Source of the DNA: a virus
Virus record (IMG/VR): IMGVR_UViG_3300050821_004237
Location: 4,872-68,871 of that record
DNA length: 64,000 bases
Strand: one strand, 5' to 3'
In this document: piece by piece, positions 1,221-64,000 of the stretch
Layout: each line of letters opens with the position of its first letter
Position numbering within the stretch: the stretch's first letter is position 1
Notes under the pieces: model-generated
What the model was told of the DNA's origin: nothing
Seen by the model: only the letters and a program-made list of their open reading frames with translations
The model's database searches: none
Position numbers and translations under genes: made by a program

Positions 1221-1540
1221 CAACCGAATACCAAGTTGCCTACGCCGAGGGGTACGAAGCAGGAGCGCAGGAACTCCACAAACGCGACGCTGCGCTTGCT
1301 CAATGTCGCAGTCTGTTAAAGCAGCAAGTCGAGGATGTGACGCCGCTGCGCGAACGTGTTGCCGTTCTTGAGGCGTCAATGAGACGGTACGGGCAACACA
1401 TGTCCGATTGCCACGGATTGCTATACCACGGCAGGCACCATCCGTACGGGGATTGTTCATGTGGTTTCAATCAAGCCGCTATCGATTGTGGATTACGCCA
1501 TGCCTCACAATCTCATGATGCCGCAGGAGATGTGAAATGA
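1217..1540 (+). CDS. hypothetical phage protein
   Basis: 107 aa; GTGA coupling; H-x3-C...CSCG putative metal site. Confidence 0.65.
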   Translation: MTTEYQVAYAEGYEAGAQELHKRDAALAQCRSLLKQQVEDVTPLRERVAVLEASMRRYGQHMSDCHGLLYHGRHHPYGDCSCGFNQAAIDCGLRHASQSHDAAGDVK

Positions 1541-2655
1541 CGCGCGGCCGAATTCCAACACTCGATGGGCTGCGAGCGGTGGCGATTCTAATGGTTATCA
1601 CTTCGCACGCTACCAAAGGACGTATCCAGGCACTCGGACGCACCGGTGTGCTGCTGTTCTTCGCCCTATCAGGCTACCTGATCACTACGCGGTTGATTGA
1701 TGAATACCGCAAGAGCGGCCACATTTCATTGAGTAACTTCTACCTGCGTCGTATATTTCGTATTATACCGCCAGCGTTAGTGTATTTGGCTGTTCTCGCC
1801 GTAGCAAGCGCGATTGGAATCGTTATATGCACCGACAAGCCGATACTAGCCGCGATGTTTTTCTATGTGAATTACATAGATCCAGCAGATCATCTAGGCT
1901 TTCGTGCCGGTCATTTCTGGTCACTCTCTGTGGAAGAGCATTTCTATCTTCTATGGCCACTCGCGCTGATCACGTTTGGCGTGGCCAAGGGATGGCGCAC
2001 TGCGCTGACATTAATATGTGGCGTAATCGTATGGCGCGCGCTCGATCACCATTTCAATATCCTGGCAGGAATATTCCACGCACCATGGCTGGTCTGGAAT
2101 CAGCACGGGACCGATGCGGTTGTTGATACGCTGCTGTGGGGATGTTCGCTCGCGTTTTTCTCATTCAAGTTAAGGCCGTGGATATCGGCTGGTATCACGG
2201 TTATAGGAGTAATTGCTCTGATTCTTTGCGTCATGGGATTGCCACCAGTGAATGCCAATATCGTACTGACCGCAGAAGACTTACTACCAGTGGTCATTTT
2301 AGGAGCTATCGTATCGTGTCCATCGAACTGGATAGGCAGATTCCTAGAACTCGCGCCCATGAGATTCATAGGCCACATCTCGTACAGCCTATACATCTGG
2401 CAGCAGATGTTTATTTGGGGGCCTGGGCGCACGCTACCTGTACCGCTCGGTATCGCCGCAGCCTTCGCATGCGCTTACTTTAGCTACCGATTTATTGAGC
2501 TACCAAATATTGAGTTTGGCCGAACAAATGCAAGGAAATATATGTGCGTGATTAAGGACGTCATTTGCATGACGCTGGCGGTGGTTATAATTCTCGGCAG
2601 ACATATTATGACGCCGATACTTGGGCCAATAGATAAGGGTAGGAACGAAGCATGA
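1537..2655 (+). CDS. acyltransferase-3 family (OafA/Oac-like) membrane O-acyltransferase
   Basis: LDGLRAVAILMV, FFALSGYLIT, FYLRRIFRI, HFWSLSVEEHFY, ISYSLYIWQ, SYRFIE motifs; many TM segments; AGGAG RBS. Confidence 0.92.
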   Translation: MTRGRIPTLDGLRAVAILMVITSHATKGRIQALGRTGVLLFFALSGYLITTRLIDEYRKSGHISLSNFYLRRIFRIIPPALVYLAVLAVASAIGIVICTDKPILAAMFFYVNYIDPADHLGFRAGHFWSLSVEEHFYLLWPLALITFGVAKGWRTALTLICGVIVWRALDHHFNILAGIFHAPWLVWNQHGTDAVVDTLLWGCSLAFFSFKLRPWISAGITVIGVIALILCVMGLPPVNANIVLTAEDLLPVVILGAIVSCPSNWIGRFLELAPMRFIGHISYSLYIWQQMFIWGPGRTLPVPLGIAAAFACAYFSYRFIELPNIEFGRTNARKYMCVIKDVICMTLAVVIILGRHIMTPILGPIDKGRNEA

Positions 2656-15557: not shown

Positions 15558-16262
15558 TCAGTCCTTCTGCGGGCCGGGCAGGCCCTTCAACGTGTGAATC
15601 AATTCCGCGCGAATTCGTTTAACGAAAGAATCGAGCACCTTGTGCCCGGTGTCGAGATCCCCACCGCCGACGCTCCGCACGCCATCAGGATGCACAACGT
15701 ACTCGCCGCCGGCCGCGACGATCGGCACGCCGCTGGCGGCTCCGCCCTTCGCCATGCCGTAAGGGCCTTTGCCTTGGCCGTACGGAGTCGCGCCTGAGCC
15801 GCCATAGGGATTGCCGCCGAAGACGCGCTTAGCGTGCTTGAAGCCCGCGATGGTGTTCCCCTCCCCACCTGCGGAAATCACGTCCGCAGGAATAACGTAC
15901 GACCCTGACGGGACGTGCATCGGTAAGTGGTCGGTGCGCCCAGCGACGGAACTGTGGATCGGCCCCACATGCATCTTCGTCGGCGGTTTATGCGTGTGAA
16001 CTTTGACGTGTCCGCCTTCAGCTTTTCCCTGTCGGATTTCCTCACCCAGTCCTTTATGCCCCTTTGGCGCCGGATATTCGATGTGCTCTTTTAAGACCGA
16101 TTTAGCTATATGGTGCGCCTCGGATGCTGTGACGCCGCCTCGAGCGTGGTGCTTACGTGCGACGTTGAGCGCTGCGGCGATGGCTTGATCGCGCGGATGG
16201 CCTAATGATTCCATTTCCGAAATGTTATGGCCGATCTCTTTTTTACCTTTCAGCAATGGCAT
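15558..16262 (-). CDS. putative internal virion protein
   Basis: TAATG coupling at 16262; QAIAAAL motif; GRTDHLPMHVPSGSYVIPADV domain; xxxGG motifs. Confidence 0.65.
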   Translation of the reverse strand: MPLLKGKKEIGHNISEMESLGHPRDQAIAAALNVARKHHARGGVTASEAHHIAKSVLKEHIEYPAPKGHKGLGEEIRQGKAEGGHVKVHTHKPPTKMHVGPIHSSVAGRTDHLPMHVPSGSYVIPADVISAGGEGNTIAGFKHAKRVFGGNPYGGSGATPYGQGKGPYGMAKGGAASGVPIVAAGGEYVVHPDGVRSVGGGDLDTGHKVLDSFVKRIRAELIHTLKGLPGPQKD

Positions 16263-43680: not shown

Positions 43681-45318
43681 TTAGACAGGATACAGGGGTT
43701 CTTGTCTGCCGCGATAGCGCTGCAATTCCGCCAGCTCGGCGGCTTTCTCTGGAGCGCGCGCGATCAGTCCATTATCGCGCATGTGTCTTATGGCTTGAGA
43801 AACTGTGTCGGTCAAATCATCGAATTTCGCATACGGGAATTGCGCCACTTGCGTTATCACCATGTCGGCCCACTTTCGATCAGGCGCATAGATAATTCCC
43901 TCCGCGAATAAATGCTGAATTGAAAATAGACGCGAGAGTTTGTCTTGGCTTTTCGGGTCATACAATTGCACGCCGAATTTTTCGTTAGCATAGAGGCGGC
44001 GAACTTCCTGAGCCACGCTATGGCCAGCCGCTTTTGCCTCCACTAGGAGAAGATCAACTTTTAATTTTATGCAAGTCTCAGCCACCTTTTCTACAAGCTT
44101 GTGCAATTCCAAACGGTCCTGCCATGCGTGCATGAGCATGACCTTCGGCGCTGTAGCTGCTTCAAAAGTTTCATTGTCGCGATACATGGGCTGCGAGTTT
44201 CCGCGCTTATCGATCACTCTGTTAGGAGCATCAACTAGCGAGCGCTCACCGGAAAATACGCCCCACACAGTGAGCGCTGAAAAATCGTTGCTGGTCTTCT
44301 CCGTGTACGCGGTATCCAAACTCGCCATAACGAAATCCATCGACGGGAATGTTTCTCTCTCCCACAGCTTCCAATAATCCCGTGGGATGATGCCGCCGCC
44401 CGCAGGCTCTGGTCGCTGCTGCAACTGACCATTTGCGATCATCGGACCCAATGCGCGCTCGAGAGAAACGACTTCTTCTTCGCCAAATCGTTCCGGCCAC
44501 ATGAGTTCCCCGGCAACCGTGCGCGGATCCTTCCATCCGATCTGAGTTACGAATGATCGGTCCGGTTCATAGCGCATCGGGATCATCAAATGACACCACT
44601 CGCCGGTATTTTTCTCCAAAATATGACCGCTGATGTCGTTCTCGGCGAGCCTTTGCTGGATGACGATGAAAGCGCCAGTTTTTGGGTCGTTTAAGCGAGT
44701 TGAAGCGACCGAATCCCACCAGTCTGTCGTCGCTTTGATCGATGCGTCAGAAAAAGCCTCATTAGCAGCGTTTAAATCATCTCCCACGAGTATTTGAGCG
44801 CCTTCGCCAGTGGTAGCGCCATCGACGGATGTTATTAAGCGCTCGCCGCCTTTGCTATTTGTGAAGCGGGACTTCGTATTCTGGTCAGAAACTAATGCGA
44901 ATCGATTTCCCCATCGCTCCTGATACCAATTCGACTCGATTAAGCGCCGACATTTCACCGAATCGCGCAATGAGAGCTGATTTGCGTACGAAGAATACAA
45001 AAACGGCACGCCAGGTCCGCTCACTGGCGTGACGCGCGATTGCGCCCAGCACCACGGCAGCAATGCAACGCTCACGAGCCCGGATTTAGAGCAGCGCGGA
45101 CTAATATTTATGAGCAGCTTGCGGATTTCGCCGTCAATCACGGCCTGCAAATGTTCGGCCACCGCATCAATTGCCCAAGAATCTACCCATGGCGCAGAAT
45201 CTATGAACGGCCATGCGGCTTTGTAGAACTCGTAGAGACTATCCTGACAATCCGCGGCGTCTAGATCCAAAAGTTGGCGTTTCGGATCAATCCCGCTTAA
45301 GTCAAAGTCTTGGAGCAT
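43681..45318 (-). CDS. terL: terminase large subunit
   Basis: INISPRCSKS (Walker A-like), VGDD (Walker B), IQQRL, QQRP, SLDTA, VEAKAAG, DDLTD nuclease motifs. Confidence 0.95.
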   Translation of the reverse strand: MLQDFDLSGIDPKRQLLDLDAADCQDSLYEFYKAAWPFIDSAPWVDSWAIDAVAEHLQAVIDGEIRKLLINISPRCSKSGLVSVALLPWCWAQSRVTPVSGPGVPFLYSSYANQLSLRDSVKCRRLIESNWYQERWGNRFALVSDQNTKSRFTNSKGGERLITSVDGATTGEGAQILVGDDLNAANEAFSDASIKATTDWWDSVASTRLNDPKTGAFIVIQQRLAENDISGHILEKNTGEWCHLMIPMRYEPDRSFVTQIGWKDPRTVAGELMWPERFGEEEVVSLERALGPMIANGQLQQRPEPAGGGIIPRDYWKLWERETFPSMDFVMASLDTAYTEKTSNDFSALTVWGVFSGERSLVDAPNRVIDKRGNSQPMYRDNETFEAATAPKVMLMHAWQDRLELHKLVEKVAETCIKLKVDLLLVEAKAAGHSVAQEVRRLYANEKFGVQLYDPKSQDKLSRLFSIQHLFAEGIIYAPDRKWADMVITQVAQFPYAKFDDLTDTVSQAIRHMRDNGLIARAPEKAAELAELQRYRGRQEPLYPV

Positions 45319-49396: not shown

Positions 49397-49629
49397 CGCG
49401 CACCATCGCTGCGCAACAAATACGCCAACTCTCGCGCCTCGTTCACCAAATGGCTAACGTTATCGATCGCACCGTGTCTGTGGCCCTTCAGTTCTAGCCA
49501 CAGCAGATAGTCGGATGCCGCGCCGAGCGCAAGCTGAAGGCGGTCGATATCGCCTAGCATTACAGTTACAGGCTGCGAGTAACGCGGATTGTATTGGCGA
49601 GATGGTATCGTCTTCGCAGCGTCGTTCAT
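49393..49629 (-). CDS. hypothetical protein
   Basis: 78 aa; ATGA coupling. Confidence 0.55.
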   Translation of the reverse strand: MNDAAKTIPSRQYNPRYSQPVTVMLGDIDRLQLALGAASDYLLWLELKGHRHGAIDNVSHLVNEARELAYLLRSDGAR

Positions 49630-49826
49630 GGCATCGGGCCCTCGGTCGGACCGGTATCGACGTGCGCAAAGGCTTTATCGAGGATGTCTGAAATCGCCCA
49701 CTGCATCGTTAGTCCCTTGCGGGCGCACCAGACCTTAATGCGGCCGTGCGTCTCGGGCGTCAGCGTCAGGTTCACTCGCTTCCTCTTCACCGCCGGTGTC
49801 GTCTCCGTATTCGTCTGAGTACTCAT
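49626..49826 (-). CDS. ribbon-helix-helix (ParG/Arc-like) protein
   Basis: KRVNLTLTPETHGRIKVWCARKGLTMQWAISDIL. Confidence 0.7.
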   Translation of the reverse strand: MSTQTNTETTPAVKRKRVNLTLTPETHGRIKVWCARKGLTMQWAISDILDKAFAHVDTGPTEGPMP

Positions 49827-50226
49827 TTGCGTCAATACTATCATCTGGGCTAGGCGTGTCAATAGTATTTCCGTGTTCGTCATACGTACCCGGTGGCGGC
49901 TCGCCGAAACAGTCGCGGTATATCTGGCCTGCACTGCCTGGCCTGAAACCGCGCGGCTCTGGCGCAGGCGCAGGCTTCGGCGGCGCGGCGCGTACCGGCG
50001 CCGGCGTGGCCGCCCGCGGCAGCGGATCCGGCGCGCGCAAAACGGTTGGCACCACCGCTGTCGGCTGCGTTAGCCGCAACCCGTTCGGCCCAGACATCAG
50101 GGCTACCATTTCGACTAAGCCATCCTGCATCGAGCGGCCGTTTCGAATGCACCAAGCTTTGAGGCTCGCGTGGACATCCTTCGGGAAATGCACGTTGATC
50201 CAGACGTGATTCTTCGTACTTGTCAC
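49735..50226 (-). CDS. ribbon-helix-helix protein with Pro-rich/acidic tail
   Basis: WINVHFPKDVHASLKAWCIRNGRSMQDGL; AGGAG RBS. Confidence 0.7.
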   Translation of the reverse strand: MTSTKNHVWINVHFPKDVHASLKAWCIRNGRSMQDGLVEMVALMSGPNGLRLTQPTAVVPTVLRAPDPLPRAATPAPVRAAPPKPAPAPEPRGFRPGSAGQIYRDCFGEPPPGTYDEHGNTIDTPSPDDSIDANEYSDEYGDDTGGEEEASEPDADARDARPH

Positions 50227-50546
50227 ATTATCTCCTAGTGATACTTATTCGGTACCGTATTAACTATGGCCTAAAATAATACCATATTGGATACTATGAT
50301 GTATAGGATAAAAGGGGACCCATTTTCCAGATTGATTCCCAGAATCTGACTTTTCCCTATATGCCATCGCGGCGCGCAGGTACCGGTACAGGAGTCCCAA
50401 ATTCCTAGAAAAGGGGGTGTACCGGGGTCGAAATTGCCTAATAGGCCAGGCGGGCGGCTGATATGGCCTAGAGACCGCCATGCCGTGAGCCGAGCTTCGA
50501 GCGTGCCTCGGTCGCTGGCGCCAGCGCGATCCCATGCTGCATAGTG

Positions 50547-50574
50547 ACTTCGCATAATCCTTATTATGTAACAT
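50547..50574 (+). other. dif-like XerC/XerD recombination site
   Basis: ACTTCGCATAA-TCCTTA-TTATGTAACAT versus E. coli dif GGTGCGCATAA-TGTATA-TTATGTTAAAT (8/11 and 9/11 arm identity). Confidence 0.75.
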
Positions 50575-50589
50575 AAGTATTACCAATGA

Positions 50590-51030
50590 TATCAATGAGT
50601 TAACATATATCTACAATAGCTATCCACAGTTACGCGTGCAAACCAATACCAGTCAGCGGCACAGATCAAACTTGTGGCGAGTTCGCTAGGTCGAGGGTTA
50701 GTTGCACCGCATCATTGTTGCATCGCAGCGAATTCCATATGGATCGAAGGAGTGGCGATCGGGATTAGAGTTGGATTGATAAGCCAAACCTATCACCAAT
50801 TTTATAACTGACTTATCAAAAAGTTGATAGACCGCGATTATCAATATAGACCGTAAGGACTGTAAGGCATACTGTAAGATATAAGTACATGTATTTAATA
50901 TAATTATTACAGTCTTACAGTTAGTACAGTATAAATAGCATGGTACATGAGATATTTGACCATGGTAATGGTGGTAATTTAACAATAATAAAAATGATAA
51001 AATGAATGTTGCCTCCCAGACCTGTAAGAG
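50590..51030. promoter_or_regulatory. AT-rich origin-like region
   Basis: IHF consensus WATCAAN4TTR at 50590-50602 and 50814-50826; DnaA-box-like CTATCCACA at 50620-50628; direct and inverted CTGTAAG repeats 50851-50920 and 51022. Confidence 0.55.
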
Positions 51031-51123
51031 CTGTACATCGCAGTGCAGCAATTGACCGAGGCAAACGAGTGCTGCGATGCGTGACCGAAGTGGAAACCGA
51101 GATACGCCTCACAGAGTTCGGTG

Positions 51124-51152
51124 TTGACAAGTGAGCCACATAAACATACCAT
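51124..51152 (+). promoter_or_regulatory. sigma70-type promoter
   Basis: TTGACA-17 bp-TACCAT upstream of 51220. Confidence 0.7.
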
Positions 51153-51219
51153 TTGACACAGAAGAGATGAATCGCCCAATAGCGCATCAGAGATTGGACA
51201 CATACGGAGATGAATATTT

Positions 51220-51438
51220 ATGCAACTCACCGTTAAGATACCGAAGGTCGGAACTCTCACTGCGTCATCCATTGAGGCGTTAGGCAATGCCGCATGGGAC
51301 GCCGTGCACACCGCACCAAATGGCTTCAGCACTGGCTTTGGCTGCTCCGAGGTCGGTAGCAACTGGCCAGTGAAATGCGATGGCGTAAAGATCGGCACGT
51401 TGCGTTATAACGGTCGCTTCGACGCGGCTGTGTCATGA
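51220..51438 (+). CDS. hypothetical protein
   Basis: 72 aa; GGAG RBS; G.L.YNGR motif. Confidence 0.7.
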   Translation: MQLTVKIPKVGTLTASSIEALGNAAWDAVHTAPNGFSTGFGCSEVGSNWPVKCDGVKIGTLRYNGRFDAAVS

Positions 51439-51566
51439 GAGACGGCATCGAAGTTGTATGGCACACGTGGGACACCGCGCCTGCCGATCTGTGGCCGCTG
51501 ATCAGGGAGTGGATACGCGTGCAGCGGCAGGCATATGCGCTGTTCTTCGATGGGAAATTAATATGA
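51435..51566 (+). CDS. small hypothetical protein (43 aa)
   Basis: ATGA overlaps at both ends. Confidence 0.5.
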   Translation: MRDGIEVVWHTWDTAPADLWPLIREWIRVQRQAYALFFDGKLI

Positions 51567-51649
51567 GCGCCGATGTGTGGTATTGGCTCGCCGTCGCATC
51601 GCTTATAGTAATTGGCTTCGTTTGCCTGCTGGAGGAATTGCAGTCATGA
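51563..51649 (+). CDS. single-TM micro-protein (28 aa)
   Basis: MSADVWYWLAVASLIVIGFVCLLEELQS; ATGA overlaps. Confidence 0.45.
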   Translation: MSADVWYWLAVASLIVIGFVCLLEELQS

Positions 51650-51807
51650 ATAACGTGAGATTAGACACGCGATCGATTAGATACTGGCGCATCGTCAACG
51701 GCCGCGTCGATCATGAGGCGCGCAATCGCTATGCCGCAGCTTTCGCTGTCGGACTCGCGATATTGGTTTGCGCGGCGCTCGCTGCGAGCGCTATTGCGTC
51801 AGCCTGA
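51646..51807 (+). CDS. small protein with C-terminal TM (53 aa)
   Basis: GGAGG RBS; ATGA overlap. Confidence 0.55.
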   Translation: MNNVRLDTRSIRYWRIVNGRVDHEARNRYAAAFAVGLAILVCAALAASAIASA

Positions 51808-54102
51808 ATCTTCGGTAATTCTCTTCGGCTTAACCCACTGGCGCTTGTTATCGACGGTTTTCTGAATCCATCCATACGCCTTTAAGATATTGACCACACG
51901 CAGTTTCTCGATATGTGTCATATCCTTTGTTGTTAGTTGAATTCCACTGTCAGTGAGAATCTTGGCTACTTGTACTGGGTGTCCGGCAATAGCCCGCGGC
52001 TCGCAATAGACCAGCACATCCTCAGTCCACAAATCCTCGGAATTACGAGCGCGCTGTTCAATTGAGGTCTCTTCCGCTGGCATCTTGTAGTAAGCCTCAC
52101 CTTGGCGATATGCATGAAGCGCCTCAGCGAATATTTGCTCACGCTGGTTGCGCAGCGCCTCGAGGTTAATTGTTTTTCCGCAGCGCAGCGGCCAATAGCG
52201 GCGAATGCCGCGCATTTCAGGTAGATAGTCCTCGGTTTCTGATGTCGCTGCAAAGATGCATTTGCGCGGATGATCTTCATCATGACGCCCGTACTTGATT
52301 CTGTATCGATCGGTGCGCGTGGTAATAGTTGAGATAACGTGACTGTGATCACGGCGGCTGAATCCAGCCATATCCGGAATTTCAACCAGCCATTTGCCTT
52401 GAATAGTATTGATGAATTCATAGCTGCCAAAGGCCGTGCCGACTGCGGCATACCAGCGATCGCCTAGAATTTCTAGTGCAGATGATTTGCCAGCGCCCAT
52501 GGTGCCTTCTAGTACTGGCATGTGATCGGCCTGTATGCCAGGCTTATACGCGCGCGCGATCATGGAAATGATCCAATTGCGACCTACCGCCATTGAATAG
52601 GCCGTGAGCGGCACATGCAAGCAATCGCCAAGCCAAGTGCTAAGTCTCTCCGTGCCGTCCCATTCGAGGGATTCGAGCCACTCCTGCGCCGAGTTGCGCG
52701 GGTTTTGATGTGCGGCGTGACCTATTGCGTCATCGACCATTTTCAGGGAAATCTTAGGCAATCGCAGCGTGTACTGAATAAAAGCGGCGAGATTCTTCGA
52801 ATCTATATCAGTCCACTCCCGAGGATATGGCCCGGTCGTCGTGTGATAGACGCGCTCGCAGAAATGATCCCACCAGATCTTGCCTTTGAAGTTCTTATGA
52901 AATCGCATGATCATGCTGACATTGGCCAGCGTTGGGTAGGGGATGTCTTTCGAATCCGCTAAAAGCCCCATTTCTTTCCAGAGAACCAGATTCGATCGAG
53001 TCGGCTGCTCGTTGGGGTAATCCTCGGCGTGAGGATGTTCGTTCTTTGGGAGATATTCGGATGGCGCCAGGGCCGGCTCCGCCGCTGCAGCGACCGAAAC
53101 CTCTTGTGTGGCCTGCGTAGGCGAAGTCGCGGGAGACAAGTCCGCTGCAACGGCTGGAGTCGGCGCCGGCTTATCCTCGGCCGGCTTCGATATCTTATCC
53201 GTAATATGCGCTGTCGCCCAATCCCGAATTTGCGCCGGGCTCCAGCCTTCGGCGACCGCATCGCCGATATCCCACCCTGGATCCTGGCCATTGGGCTGCA
53301 CCACGCGGACTCTGGTGGCAATTGGTGCCAATATCTGAGCGAGCTCGGCTCCGGCCGCGCGCCCCGGCTCATCGGCGTCCGGCCAAATGATGACATCGCG
53401 CCGCTCGAGGCATGTCCAGTCGGTCTGCTTAACGGCCCCCGAGCCCCCCGCCCAGGTCATGCACACATAGGCGCGCAGCTGCTGCGATGCGATATCGGCG
53501 CACTTCTCGCCCTCGACGATCATCACTGGGGCGGTGGGGTGCAATTTTAGGAGGTCGGCGTTGTAGGGCGGCTTTTGCCCTGTGTAGCCGCGCATGTGCC
53601 ATTTCCCCTCCCGCCACGTCCATTGGCAGAACTCCTTGCCCTCAGGCAAATTGTAGCGAGTGATCCAAAAGGCCTCCCCATAGCGATAGGTGGCGTCAGC
53701 TTTGCCGTGAGTCGGGTGGTCCCTAGGATTGGGTGCGTCGGGCGGGATCGGCTCTGAGATGCTCTGGGGCGGTTTGGCGGGCCTCGTGCGGGGGAGTGTT
53801 TTGGGCGCCACGCCATCGATTACCCCTACCAACTGCGCGACCTGCTTAAGTGCGGCACCGTTATTGATATGGTTCAGCGCAGCATAAAGGCTTACGAGGT
53901 CGCCGCCCTTTTCGTTCCCCGCGCCGTGCATCCACGCGCCAGTGTTCAAATTCACGGTCCAGGAGTCCCCCGGCCCGCCATTGGCCTTACGCTCACCCAA
54001 ATACTCATGCCCGCGGCGCGTGCCGCCAGAGAGCCACTGGGGGAGCAGAATTAGGGCGTCCGCGAGCGCAGCGGAGCCAACGTCATCGAAAGTGATCGCC
54101 AT
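51799..54102 (-). CDS. DNA primase-helicase (TOPRIM plus VapE/VirE-like P-loop ATPase)
   Basis: IVEGEKCAD, WAGGS, WPDADEPG, WDIGD (TOPRIM); LEWDG..RL, GTMGAGKS Walker A, RRYWP. Confidence 0.9.
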   Translation of the reverse strand: MAITFDDVGSAALADALILLPQWLSGGTRRGHEYLGERKANGGPGDSWTVNLNTGAWMHGAGNEKGGDLVSLYAALNHINNGAALKQVAQLVGVIDGVAPKTLPRTRPAKPPQSISEPIPPDAPNPRDHPTHGKADATYRYGEAFWITRYNLPEGKEFCQWTWREGKWHMRGYTGQKPPYNADLLKLHPTAPVMIVEGEKCADIASQQLRAYVCMTWAGGSGAVKQTDWTCLERRDVIIWPDADEPGRAAGAELAQILAPIATRVRVVQPNGQDPGWDIGDAVAEGWSPAQIRDWATAHITDKISKPAEDKPAPTPAVAADLSPATSPTQATQEVSVAAAAEPALAPSEYLPKNEHPHAEDYPNEQPTRSNLVLWKEMGLLADSKDIPYPTLANVSMIMRFHKNFKGKIWWDHFCERVYHTTTGPYPREWTDIDSKNLAAFIQYTLRLPKISLKMVDDAIGHAAHQNPRNSAQEWLESLEWDGTERLSTWLGDCLHVPLTAYSMAVGRNWIISMIARAYKPGIQADHMPVLEGTMGAGKSSALEILGDRWYAAVGTAFGSYEFINTIQGKWLVEIPDMAGFSRRDHSHVISTITTRTDRYRIKYGRHDEDHPRKCIFAATSETEDYLPEMRGIRRYWPLRCGKTINLEALRNQREQIFAEALHAYRQGEAYYKMPAEETSIEQRARNSEDLWTEDVLVYCEPRAIAGHPVQVAKILTDSGIQLTTKDMTHIEKLRVVNILKAYGWIQKTVDNKRQWVKPKRITEDSG

Positions 54103-56835: not shown

Positions 56836-57076
56836 TGAATTTCTCGCGTGCCTTGCGCTCGATTTCGATTGCACGAGCGCGGTCTTCTTCGGTTGCGCCA
56901 GGGAACATCAGCATTTTGGGCGTTTTCATATGCTCGCGATCCTCGCGCCGAGCCGCTGCTAGGTCTAGACGGATGTGCGCCATTTGATTGAGCAACGTGC
57001 GCTTGAATTCGAGGACGTGACGGTAGGTGCGCTCGGAGAGGGCGGCGGCTGTGGGTTTGGCGTGGCGCTTGGTCAT
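56822..57076 (-). CDS. hypothetical protein
   Basis: 84 aa; GGAG RBS; ATGA overlap. Confidence 0.55.
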   Translation of the reverse strand: MTKRHAKPTAAALSERTYRHVLEFKRTLLNQMAHIRLDLAAARREDREHMKTPKMLMFPGATEEDRARAIEIERKAREKFNDRR

Positions 57077-58713
57077 GCGAATAACTCCTCGCTCGCCCGC
57101 ACTTCGCCGCGGCTTGGCTCAGTCACAATCTGTTTGGACGCCATCCGGTAAATGTACGCATCGCGAGTTGACCGCTTGAATCCGGTACGCTGGGTCACTT
57201 CATCGCGCGCCAGCGCTTTCGGGTAAACGTCGATCAGATTCTCAAGAATCAGCCGCTCGCCCTGTGGGAGTTTGTCCAGCCAGAATTGCTGCAGCTCTGC
57301 GCCGCGTGGCAAAGGCTCGGCGTCCGGCAATGCCAGTACCCCGTCCTCCGTCGCGGTCACGGTCTCGCCGTTGACATCTACCAGACTTTTTTCCTTGAGC
57401 CGATAGATGTAAGCGTCGCGGGTGCTGCGCTTGAATCCTGTAAGTACGGTGATCTGTTCGCGTCGCAGGCCATCAGGGTATTGAATGCATGCCGACAGCA
57501 CGGCGACTTCGCCCTTCGGCAGATCGGTCGCAGGAGCATGTCCATTCGTCTTTGCACGCGGAGCGACCTTTGGCGGCGAGGGTCGATGACGCTCAAGTCT
57601 GACCGGGACGCCAGCCATCTGAGTCTTGAATGCTGGCGCCGGCGGCATGTTCCTTGACCACGATTCGAGCGAACCGTAAAAGACTTCAAGCTGATCAGTG
57701 ATGCTCTCCTGGCCCAGCCTGAACCCTTCCTCGAACCGGCTCTTTTCGAGCGCCGCGGTATCGACAGGCGCGGCGGCTAGTGTCGTCTTAATCTGCCGCT
57801 GTAACTCCGCAATCTTCGCCTTGAGGGCCGATGGGTCGTTAGCCAAGGCATCGGCCTTGACCGCCTGCAGCTTGGCGCTAATGGCTTCCTTGTCGATTGG
57901 AGCGAGAACTTGGCCATGCTGTTCGCTGCCGTCCGGCGCGCGACCCGTATCGAAGGTGCGGATCTTGGGGAAGCTGATGCGGTCGAGAATCCCCAGTTCA
58001 GGCGCCCACACCCAGCCTTGACCTGTCTTGAGCGAAGCCAGGCTCGATATGATTTCGTTGCCTTTTGCCTTGTCGGCATTGTCCTCGATCCATTCGCGCA
58101 CGGCGTTGCGGTCCTGCGGAGCGATCAGGCGAAGTGCTACTAGCGTCTCGCATTGAGTAAGGCTGTCCTTGTGCAACTTCGCCGGGCGCTGGGTAATCAT
58201 GATTATGCGTAGCCCACGCGATCTACCAAGGCTCACTAGATTGTTCGTAGCGGACAGCATCTCACCAGCCTGAGGGCTGTTCACCTTGCCCTGCGGCGCG
58301 AACAGATGCGCCTCGTCAATGACTAGATGAAGCGGTCCCTTGTTCTTGCGGATCAGCGCATCTGCAAAGTCCGCCATGAATCGTGTACGCTCGCCGACTC
58401 GCATTAGCGATGTGTCGATGATTGCTGGCGTCGAGGACGTGCCGATCGTCTCCGCGATTGCTTCGCCGTACTGACCGGCAAGCGTCAGATCCGCGTGACT
58501 TCCGCCAAAGATGACGACCGGATATCCGCCGCTCTTGCCGGTCGCGCTTGATCGTAGGCCATTCCACGCGCCGGTAGGATCTATGATACAGACCCTTGCA
58601 TTCTCATCAAGTAATCCCTCGACGATGCCGCGAACAGCATAAGACTTGCCGGATCCGGTTTTTCCGAGCACTGCGATGTGCTGTGCGAGTGCGGCTTTCG
58701 GGAACTGATTCAC
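57073..58713 (-). CDS. HerA/FtsK-superfamily (DUF87-like) ATPase with tandem winged-helix domains
   Basis: GKTGSGKS, IIDPTG, VIDEAHLFAPQ, GRSRG, TQRPA; two TGFKRSTRDAYIYR repeats. Confidence 0.85.
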   Translation of the reverse strand: MNQFPKAALAQHIAVLGKTGSGKSYAVRGIVEGLLDENARVCIIDPTGAWNGLRSSATGKSGGYPVVIFGGSHADLTLAGQYGEAIAETIGTSSTPAIIDTSLMRVGERTRFMADFADALIRKNKGPLHLVIDEAHLFAPQGKVNSPQAGEMLSATNNLVSLGRSRGLRIIMITQRPAKLHKDSLTQCETLVALRLIAPQDRNAVREWIEDNADKAKGNEIISSLASLKTGQGWVWAPELGILDRISFPKIRTFDTGRAPDGSEQHGQVLAPIDKEAISAKLQAVKADALANDPSALKAKIAELQRQIKTTLAAAPVDTAALEKSRFEEGFRLGQESITDQLEVFYGSLESWSRNMPPAPAFKTQMAGVPVRLERHRPSPPKVAPRAKTNGHAPATDLPKGEVAVLSACIQYPDGLRREQITVLTGFKRSTRDAYIYRLKEKSLVDVNGETVTATEDGVLALPDAEPLPRGAELQQFWLDKLPQGERLILENLIDVYPKALARDEVTQRTGFKRSTRDAYIYRMASKQIVTEPSRGEVRASEELFA

Positions 58714-63541: not shown

Positions 63542-64000
63542 GAAAGTCTTACGCATTGAGGCGTTGACGCCAGAACAGTCCGCTCGCTTCGATGAGTGGG
63601 CAGATAAGTGGATTGAGATAGGCCTTCGCACCGCTCCTGCCGATCGACCTAAATTTGAGGCCGCCGCGAAGAAATGCTACGACTACGCAGGCATCCCATG
63701 GCACGGCAATGTTGTGTGGGTTTCGTCGCCATTGGTAATGGCTTTTGCAGCCCCTACTGCGGCTTTCTTGATTTCATTGATCAAGAAAGGTGGCCATGAC
63801 GACGCGGTTGACGACGCGGTTGACGACGCGGTTGACGACGCGGTTGACGACGCGGTTGACGACGCGGTTCGCGGCGCGGTTGACGACGCGGTTCGCGGCG
63901 CGGTTGGCGACGCGGTTCGCGGCGCGGTTGGCGACGCGGTTGACGACGCGGTTGACGACGCGGTTCGCGGCGCGGTTGACGACGCGGTTCGCGGCGCGGT
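63528..64000 (+). CDS. DUF6745-like protein with tetrapeptide repeats (runs off window end)
   Basis: AGGAG-GTG; LTPEQ..RF.EW.DKW..IGL.T.PADR...Y..AG...VVWVSSP then (D/R/G)(D/G)AV repeats. Confidence 0.7.
   Translation, partial: MSKTKKVLRIEALTPEQSARFDEWADKWIEIGLRTAPADRPKFEAAAKKCYDYAGIPWHGNVVWVSSPLVMAFAAPTAAFLISLIKKGGHDDAVDDAVDDAVDDAVDDAVDDAVRGAVDDAVRGAVGDAVRGAVGDAVDDAVDDAVRGAVDDAVRGA
63798..64000 (+). repeat. 12-bp tandem repeat, about 17 units, three variants
   Basis: GACGACGCGGTT / CGCGGCGCGGTT / GGCGACGCGGTT. Confidence 0.95.

Follow-up and report, generated by a model that had tools for sequence, protein, structure and literature searches.

A single host-type dif-like site beside a likely replication origin in an integrase-less soil phage and many of its relatives

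A 69-kb soil phage, in which no recombinase gene was found, maintains a single copy of a site closely resembling the bacterial chromosomal recombination site dif beside its likely replication origin. Since many of its relatives do likewise, the phage probably borrows the XerC/XerD enzymes of its host to cut and rejoin its own DNA. The analysed DNA (the window) comprises 64,000 nucleotides and corresponds to bases 4872-68871 of the 68,871-bp virus record IMGVR_UViG_3300050821_004237 (G000). The site at window positions 50547-50574 (+ strand) consists of two 11-bp arms in partial inverted repeat, separated by 6 bp (up to 8 bp in plasmid sites): (i) a XerC-type arm ACTTCGCATAA (50547-50557), (ii) a central region TCCTTA (50558-50563), and (iii) a XerD-type arm TTATGTAACAT (50564-50574). 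The observation made in the preliminary description, i.e., a 28-bp 11-6-11 site with an IHF consensus 15 bp away in a long non-coding region and no recombinase gene in the window, is confirmed.

Genomic context and sequence match to chromosomal dif

The genome is that of a tailed phage, encoding a large terminase (43681-45318, - strand; phrog_38, 1.7e-74), an SU10-like portal, a VapE-type primase/helicase (51799-54102, - strand; PF05272, 2.1e-59; phrog_256, 1.9e-76), a DEAD-type helicase, a HerA/FtsK-like ATPase (57073-58713) and a VRR-NUC nuclease. In addition, RecT-like, Mu Gam-like and HNH proteins as well as an O-antigen acetyltransferase-type protein (1537-2655; Acyl_transf_3, phrog_3333/6705) are encoded. 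No cultured phage is close, the best portal match being 64 % to an uncultured record, while podophages of Roseobacter, Pelagibacter and Caulobacter are near 27-32 %. A DNA search of positions 49500-52000 against 50,697 phage records gave no match. The ends of the record fall inside a 12-bp tandem repeat, such that its 25-nt terminal repeat says little about topology.

The site resides in a 993-bp gene-free stretch (50227-51219), the longest in the record, which separates the long leftward operon from a short rightward one. Open reading frames called mechanically within this stretch are not conserved as frames, since the alignment with L002 (the locus of a relative; such numbered loci are introduced below) contains indels of 1, 2 and 3 nt. 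GC content is 0.468 for 50001-51000 as compared to 0.50-0.67 elsewhere. A perfect match TATCAATGAGTTA to the IHF consensus WATCAANNNNTTR lies at 50590-50602 (+ strand), 15 nt after the right arm; the window contains five such matches in 64 kb, three of them in this 1-kb region. Further elements are a DnaA-box-like CTATCCACA (50620-50628, + strand; 8 of 9 positions of the consensus), for which L002/L006 has a perfect TTATCCACA at the aligned place, and inverted TTGATAA/TTATCAA repeats together with CTGTAAG iteron-like repeats in an A+T-rich core (50776-50936). The stretch therefore looks like an origin and divergent control region. Several of its blocks are nearly identical to L002, although the primases are only 63-64 % identical; a conserved 22-mer searched in IMG/VR retrieved only the L002 contig. 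Positions 50100-51400 gave no Rfam match at E<=1, so the conserved blocks are not a known RNA. The first gene of the leftward operon (49735-50226, - strand) encodes a 163-aa protein without Pfam or PHROG hit that appears ribbon-helix-helix-like by eye only; it is 90 % identical in L006, with weak N-terminal matches beside the sites of L011, L012 and L081, and is not conserved beside the site across the family.

A degenerate dif pattern with up to 3 mismatches hits the window once, against 0.04 hits expected from 100 shuffles. With a family weight matrix the site scores 38.4, whereas the next best place in the 68,871-bp record scores 8.8 and the maxima of 20 shuffles range from 3.7 to 16.5; a second partner site, as needed for inversion or a pdif-type module, is therefore rejected. 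The left arm is identical to the XerC arms of the Thiobacillus denitrificans and Methylobacillus flagellatus dif sites (Carnoy & Roten 2009, Table 1; PMC2731167), and the right arm shares 10 of 11 bases with the XerD arm of the latter (ACTTCGCATAATGTATATTATGTAAAAT). Hence, 21 of 22 arm bases match. Under genome composition, about 1.3e-7 sites per genome are expected with at most 1 mismatch to these 22 bases, and chance is excluded even allowing for choice of the best among many published dif sequences.

The two arms were also searched, with a free spacer and up to 2 mismatches, in sampled bacterial genomes. Of 401 genomes from the GTDB order of a Noviherbaspirillum genome (Burkholderiales; reached through locus L096), 42 carry a match, each exactly one, while a reversed control pattern gave none; one of the 42 is an unpublished genome (G389), without which the count is 41 of 400. 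Most read ACTTCGCATAA-TGTATA-TTATGT[A/T/C]AAAT (e.g., a Burkholderiales dif ACTTCGCATAA-TGTATA-TTATGTAAAAT), and none carries the spacer TCCTTA. In contrast, only 2 of 121 sampled Alphaproteobacteria match. Thus, the proposal of the preliminary description that the arms may hint at the host is supported, the arms being of a betaproteobacterial dif type. However, a 55 %-identical primase on a 9.3-kb contig is labelled Bradyrhizobium sp., which is not a betaproteobacterium, warning against a firm host call for the family.

Conservation among relatives

Conservation of the site in relatives, which had been set beforehand as a test, was examined by using the primase as marker. Of 598 primase homologues at E<=0.001 (from 5.8 billion proteins), the best 120 were considered, and an alignment of 32 of these served to retrieve 80 loci from IMG/VR and 80 from metagenomes (numbered L). 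With the two arms of the window as template, which favours look-alikes, 12 of 16 IMG/VR relatives with primase identity >=39 % have a site at <=6 of 22 mismatches, located 263-3963 nt downstream of the primase stop; among the 64 more distant IMG/VR loci there are two hits, both at 6 mismatches. A matrix built from these sites and a generic 15-position dif pattern added L170, L215 and a weak site in L011, the generic pattern giving 0 hits at <=1 mismatch, 2 at 2 and 42 at 3 mismatches in 2.11 Mb of distant loci. After removal of duplicates (L005 = L165; L176 = L177; L002 = L003 = L006; IMG/VR/metagenome twins), 15 (14 strong, 1 weak) of 25 distinct relatives with at least 2 kb of sequence downstream of the primase carry a site. 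The other ten (L015, L042, L080, L171, L176, L180, L183, L188, L192, L204) show none in the stretch covered, and six further loci with less than 1.1 kb downstream are uninformative. Nine of the 15 sites have the orientation of the window relative to the primase and six are flipped. Pattern search of whole records gives one strong site each in the two complete relatives G004 and G005, but none in the 84 %-complete record G001.

In the 16 sites (including that of the window), positions 5, 6, 11, 12 and 22 are invariant, positions 7-10, 19-21 and 25-27 are kept in 14-16 sites (19-22 and 25-27 in 15-16), and positions 13-15, 23, 24 and 28 vary freely. The XerC-type arm of the window is identical in 9 of the 15 relatives' sites, with a per-position conservation of 12-16 of 16. 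The first spacer base is always T and the last is A in 14 sites, with 11 different hexamers overall. The 70 nt on either side are unrelated between lineages. This profile agrees with that described for chromosomal dif, i.e., most conserved inner arm parts, highly conserved A25, variable positions 23 and 24, and a most variable second spacer base (PMC2731167). Some relatives come even closer to canonical dif than the window: L013 has the right arm TTATGTTAAAT, and the usual host spacer TGTATA or nearly so occurs in L081, L215 and L011 (TGTATT in L005). Such a pattern is predicted by selection for XerC/XerD binding and hard to obtain from the site of an unrelated protein. However, the XerC arm is better kept than the XerD arm in the phages (158 versus 143 of 176 cells), whereas the XerD arm is reported as the better conserved one in chromosomes (PMC2731167), and five sites begin the right arm with G. 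Plasmid and mobile-element Xer sites likewise tend to have weak XerD arms and to use XerC-first exchange.

With respect to the surroundings, the IHF motif recurs in the same orientation 15 nt (L006, L010) or 25 nt (L005) beyond the right arm, being the only match in each of these ~12-kb loci. DnaA boxes lie within 400 nt of the site in L004, L006, L007 and L018. The site lies 5.2 kb from the large terminase gene (terL) in the window, and 3.5, 2.9 and 2.5 kb before terL in L004, L007 and L008, respectively.

Six-frame searches of the whole record gave no match at E<=1 for tyrosine (PF00589) or serine (PF00239) recombinases, and PF00589 was likewise not found in the records of five relatives, three of them complete. 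Also not found in G000 were ParB_N, ParA (AAA_31), DUF3653 (the family of the Xer activator XafT; no match at E<=1) and Peptidase_S24, while HTH_3 gave only a sub-threshold hit inside a structural-region frame. Since most small ORFs have no family hit, unrecognised functions remain possible.

Possible function of the site

That the element represents a genuine XerC/XerD-type site kept by selection is well supported and considered likely, given its match to host dif arms, its conservation with the positional pattern of chromosomal dif, its single-copy status and the lack of an encoded recombinase. The preliminary description left two uses open, namely integration at the host dif or resolution of circular multimers by host XerCD, and considered the deviating spacer to fit resolution better; this interpretation is partly supported, since integration found no support and recombination between phage copies fits better without being demonstrated. 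The site, its match to host dif, its conservation, its single copy and the absence of a recognised phage recombinase are established by the sequence analyses, whereas XerCD binding, recombination and the reaction served are inferred.

In the favoured view (probability about 0.55), a family of roughly 65-70 kb integrase-less soil podophages keeps one dif mimic per genome, beside an origin-like region and a few kb from the packaging genes. Host XerC would bind the left and host XerD the right arm, with strand exchange across the spacer. As the spacer differs between phages but is identical between two copies of the same phage, the natural partners would be two phage copies rather than the host chromosome; copy-to-copy reactions would always be homologous, while reactions with the chromosome mostly would not. 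The likely outcome would be conversion of dimers or multimers of circular replicating or persisting phage DNA into monomers; multimers would be generated with the RecT-like and Gam-like proteins. A variant is circularisation of terminally redundant DNA, if the site falls within the redundancy. On the other hand, resolving multimers late in infection would be counter-productive for a phage packaging concatemers, and a stable plasmid prophage has no genetic backing in the absence of detected partition and CI-type repressor genes.

Alternatively, the site could be an attP, with the phage acting as a tailed IMEX that inserts at the chromosomal dif. This possibility is considered unlikely, but remains a live rival: an integrase is lacking, the acetyltransferase-type gene is typical of lysogenic conversion, and the relatives with the host spacer could undergo full exchange with host dif. 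Degenerate XerD arms occur in known IMEXs; full, left-armed and right-armed dif-like attP sites are described in PMC12715192. Against integration, two scans of one genome for each of 185,579 species, seeded by short peptide patterns and thus possibly missing some relatives, revealed no relative above about 31 % primase identity. The first, based on poor N-terminal patterns, found nothing, and the second found only a different clade of roughly 40-kb betaproteobacterial prophage-type elements. The longest contigs of the 120 considered primase homologues are phage-sized (65-75 kb). Contigs of soil runs cross the site unchanged (X1, X3, X5), and in the contigs of four soil runs no joint or loose end falls on 50547-50574; since contigs drop rare forms and uncovered parts prove nothing, this is weak evidence, and small-share runs (X6-X12) are no evidence of habitat. 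One 798-nt contig of run X2 replaces 50447-50718 by 710 other nucleotides between conserved blocks, which is read as a related strain with a swapped cassette rather than a Xer junction. Moreover, the spacer TCCTTA differs from TGTATA at 3 of 6 positions. All of this evidence is indirect.

It is doubtful that the element is the binding site of another protein (a phage regulator or origin protein) or part of a promoter. Such a role could be inferred from the control region with its other conserved blocks, DnaA-like box, IHF match and iterons, the adjacent ribbon-helix-helix-like gene and a CATAAT within the left arm resembling a -10 hexamer. However, a promoter scan yielded 4 sites against 2.5 expected, none of them on the element, and both arms, the 6-bp spacing and the positional variability follow chromosomal dif. 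Least likely appears recruitment of XerCD without productive recombination, as a roadblock for FtsK-type translocases or a sink for host Xer proteins, or a neutral piece of host DNA. XerCD bound to dif stops FtsK (PMC2800217) and the phage has its own HerA/FtsK-like ATPase, but Pfam listed no FtsK gamma domain in the latter and nothing specific supports a roadblock. A neutral remnant would not keep 28 bp while its flanks diverge completely across primase identities of 41-68 %, and no host flanking DNA accompanies the site.

Relation to known Xer sites

As compared to chromosomal dif of Betaproteobacteria, a substrate of XerC/XerD with FtsK, layout, arms, single-copy status and the pattern of fixed and variable positions agree, but the spacer differs and the site is located on a phage beside an origin-like region, not opposite it; KOPS-like octamers (GGGNAGGG) occur only three times in the genome, too few to read polarity. 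The plasmid sites cer (ColE1) and psi (pSC101) likewise are single Xer sites with their own spacer, near replication functions of replicons without own recombinase, and serve the function proposed here. They require about 180 bp of accessory sequence and PepA with ArgR or ArcA (10.64898/2026.02.23.706985), whereas no conserved flank is seen next to the XerC arm among the 16 phage sites, although degenerate accessory sites cannot be excluded. With the IMEXs (CTXphi/VGJphi-type inoviruses, TLCphi, dif-type double-jelly-roll phages, dif-integrating microviruses), the phage shares a dif-like site and the lack of an integrase. Those described in PMC12715192 are small non-tailed phages found integrated at dif, often in arrays, with RstR/XafT-type terminal genes; here, no integrated copy, significant repressor hit or XafT-like gene was found. 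The loxP site of the tailed phage P1 can resolve dimers and circularise terminally redundant DNA, and most circular plasmid prophages carry one or two XerCD-related recombinases thought to resolve dimers (PMC8026635). These phages encode the recombinase themselves, whereas the present family would outsource it to the host.

In the literature searched, exploitation of host XerCD by viruses is described for small non-tailed phages and satellites, while tailed phages are treated as encoding their own integrase or Xer-like resolvase (PMC12715192, PMC8026635). No report of a host-type dif site in an integrase-less tailed phage was found in a literature search, which covered few subscription journals; PMC3094311 mentions XerC/XerD only as background. 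A conserved, single-copy dif mimic in a podophage family suggests dependence on a host housekeeping recombinase, which would affect how such phages replicate, persist or lysogenise. It also provides a sequence-based hint to the hosts of uncultured phages and a simple testable system (a 28-bp site, host XerC/XerD, and xer mutants). More speculatively, and rather unlikely on present evidence, a single site between origin and packaging genes may let host XerCD circularise incoming terminally redundant DNA and/or monomerise replicating circles and, in members with the spacer TGTATA, also allow entry into the chromosomal dif as the first tailed IMEX. In either case, host Xer recombination would be a general, overlooked step in the life cycle of integrase-less tailed phages.

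The plausibility of a plasmid-type use is loosely supported by a circular 64-kb plasmid of Candidatus Megaera polyxenophila, a distant relative of the head module (terL 37 % identical), which has phage genes, ParA and no PF00589 match, and contains a candidate Rickettsiales-type dif-like site in an intergenic gap 2.7 kb before terL. Furthermore, a canonical dif pattern hit at least 115 IMG/VR contigs, many of them small but several 40-110 kb in size, and the phenomenon may therefore be broad.

Conserved and possibly exchanged blocks around the dif-like site
Three non-coding blocks (window 50227-50345, 50404-50447 and 50623-50755) are nearly identical between this phage and the relative represented by locus L002, although the primases of the two are only 63-64% identical. 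One block ends in AAGGAGTG, and TGCATCGCAGC recurs inverted at 50720-50729 and 51071-51080. No Rfam family matches. These blocks possibly represent operators or an unknown RNA. A 798-nt contig from one of the soil sequencing runs (X2) shares the flanking conserved blocks, but has 710 other letters in place of the 272 nt at window 50447-50718, which hold the dif-like site as well as the DnaA-like box. This looks like a swapped cassette in a related strain.

Other features of the phage genome
A 12/24-bp tandem repeat (unit TGACGACGCGGT, at least 17 copies at the window end) extends over window 63797-64000 and positions 1 to about 250 of the whole virus record (G000), spanning both ends of the record and explaining its 25-nt "direct terminal repeat". 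The repeat lies inside open frames and could represent either a repeat protein or an assembly break point. The gene at window 1537-2655 (+ strand) encodes an Acyl_transf_3/O-antigen acetylase-type protein (phrog_3333, phrog_6705), i.e., a lysogenic-conversion-type moron in a phage with no recognisable lysogeny module. The replication module contains a gene (window 57073-58713, - strand) for a 546-aa HerA/FtsK/TrwB-like P-loop ATPase, the C-terminal 300 aa of which have no family.

Dif-like sequences in other replicons
A circular 64-kb plasmid of Candidatus Megaera polyxenophila (CP113869.1) carries phage head and tail genes, RecT and ParA, but has no PF00589 match. In an intergenic gap 2.7 kb before terL (positions 15877-15904 of the retrieved locus L366, about 45876 in CP113869.1) this plasmid has the sequence TTTATACATAA-CCTAGC-TTATGGAAAAG, which resembles the Rickettsiales dif printed by Carnoy & Roten. 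In the Noviherbaspirillum genome G008, a second dif-like site with another spacer is present on a second contig (C2, 108776-108799), which is perhaps a second replicon or a mobile element. A canonical dif pattern (TTCGCATAA-N6-TTATGTNAAAT) occurs in at least 115 viral contigs of IMG/VR (loci L251-L365), including contigs of 40-110 kb as well as many small contigs where it lies near an end.
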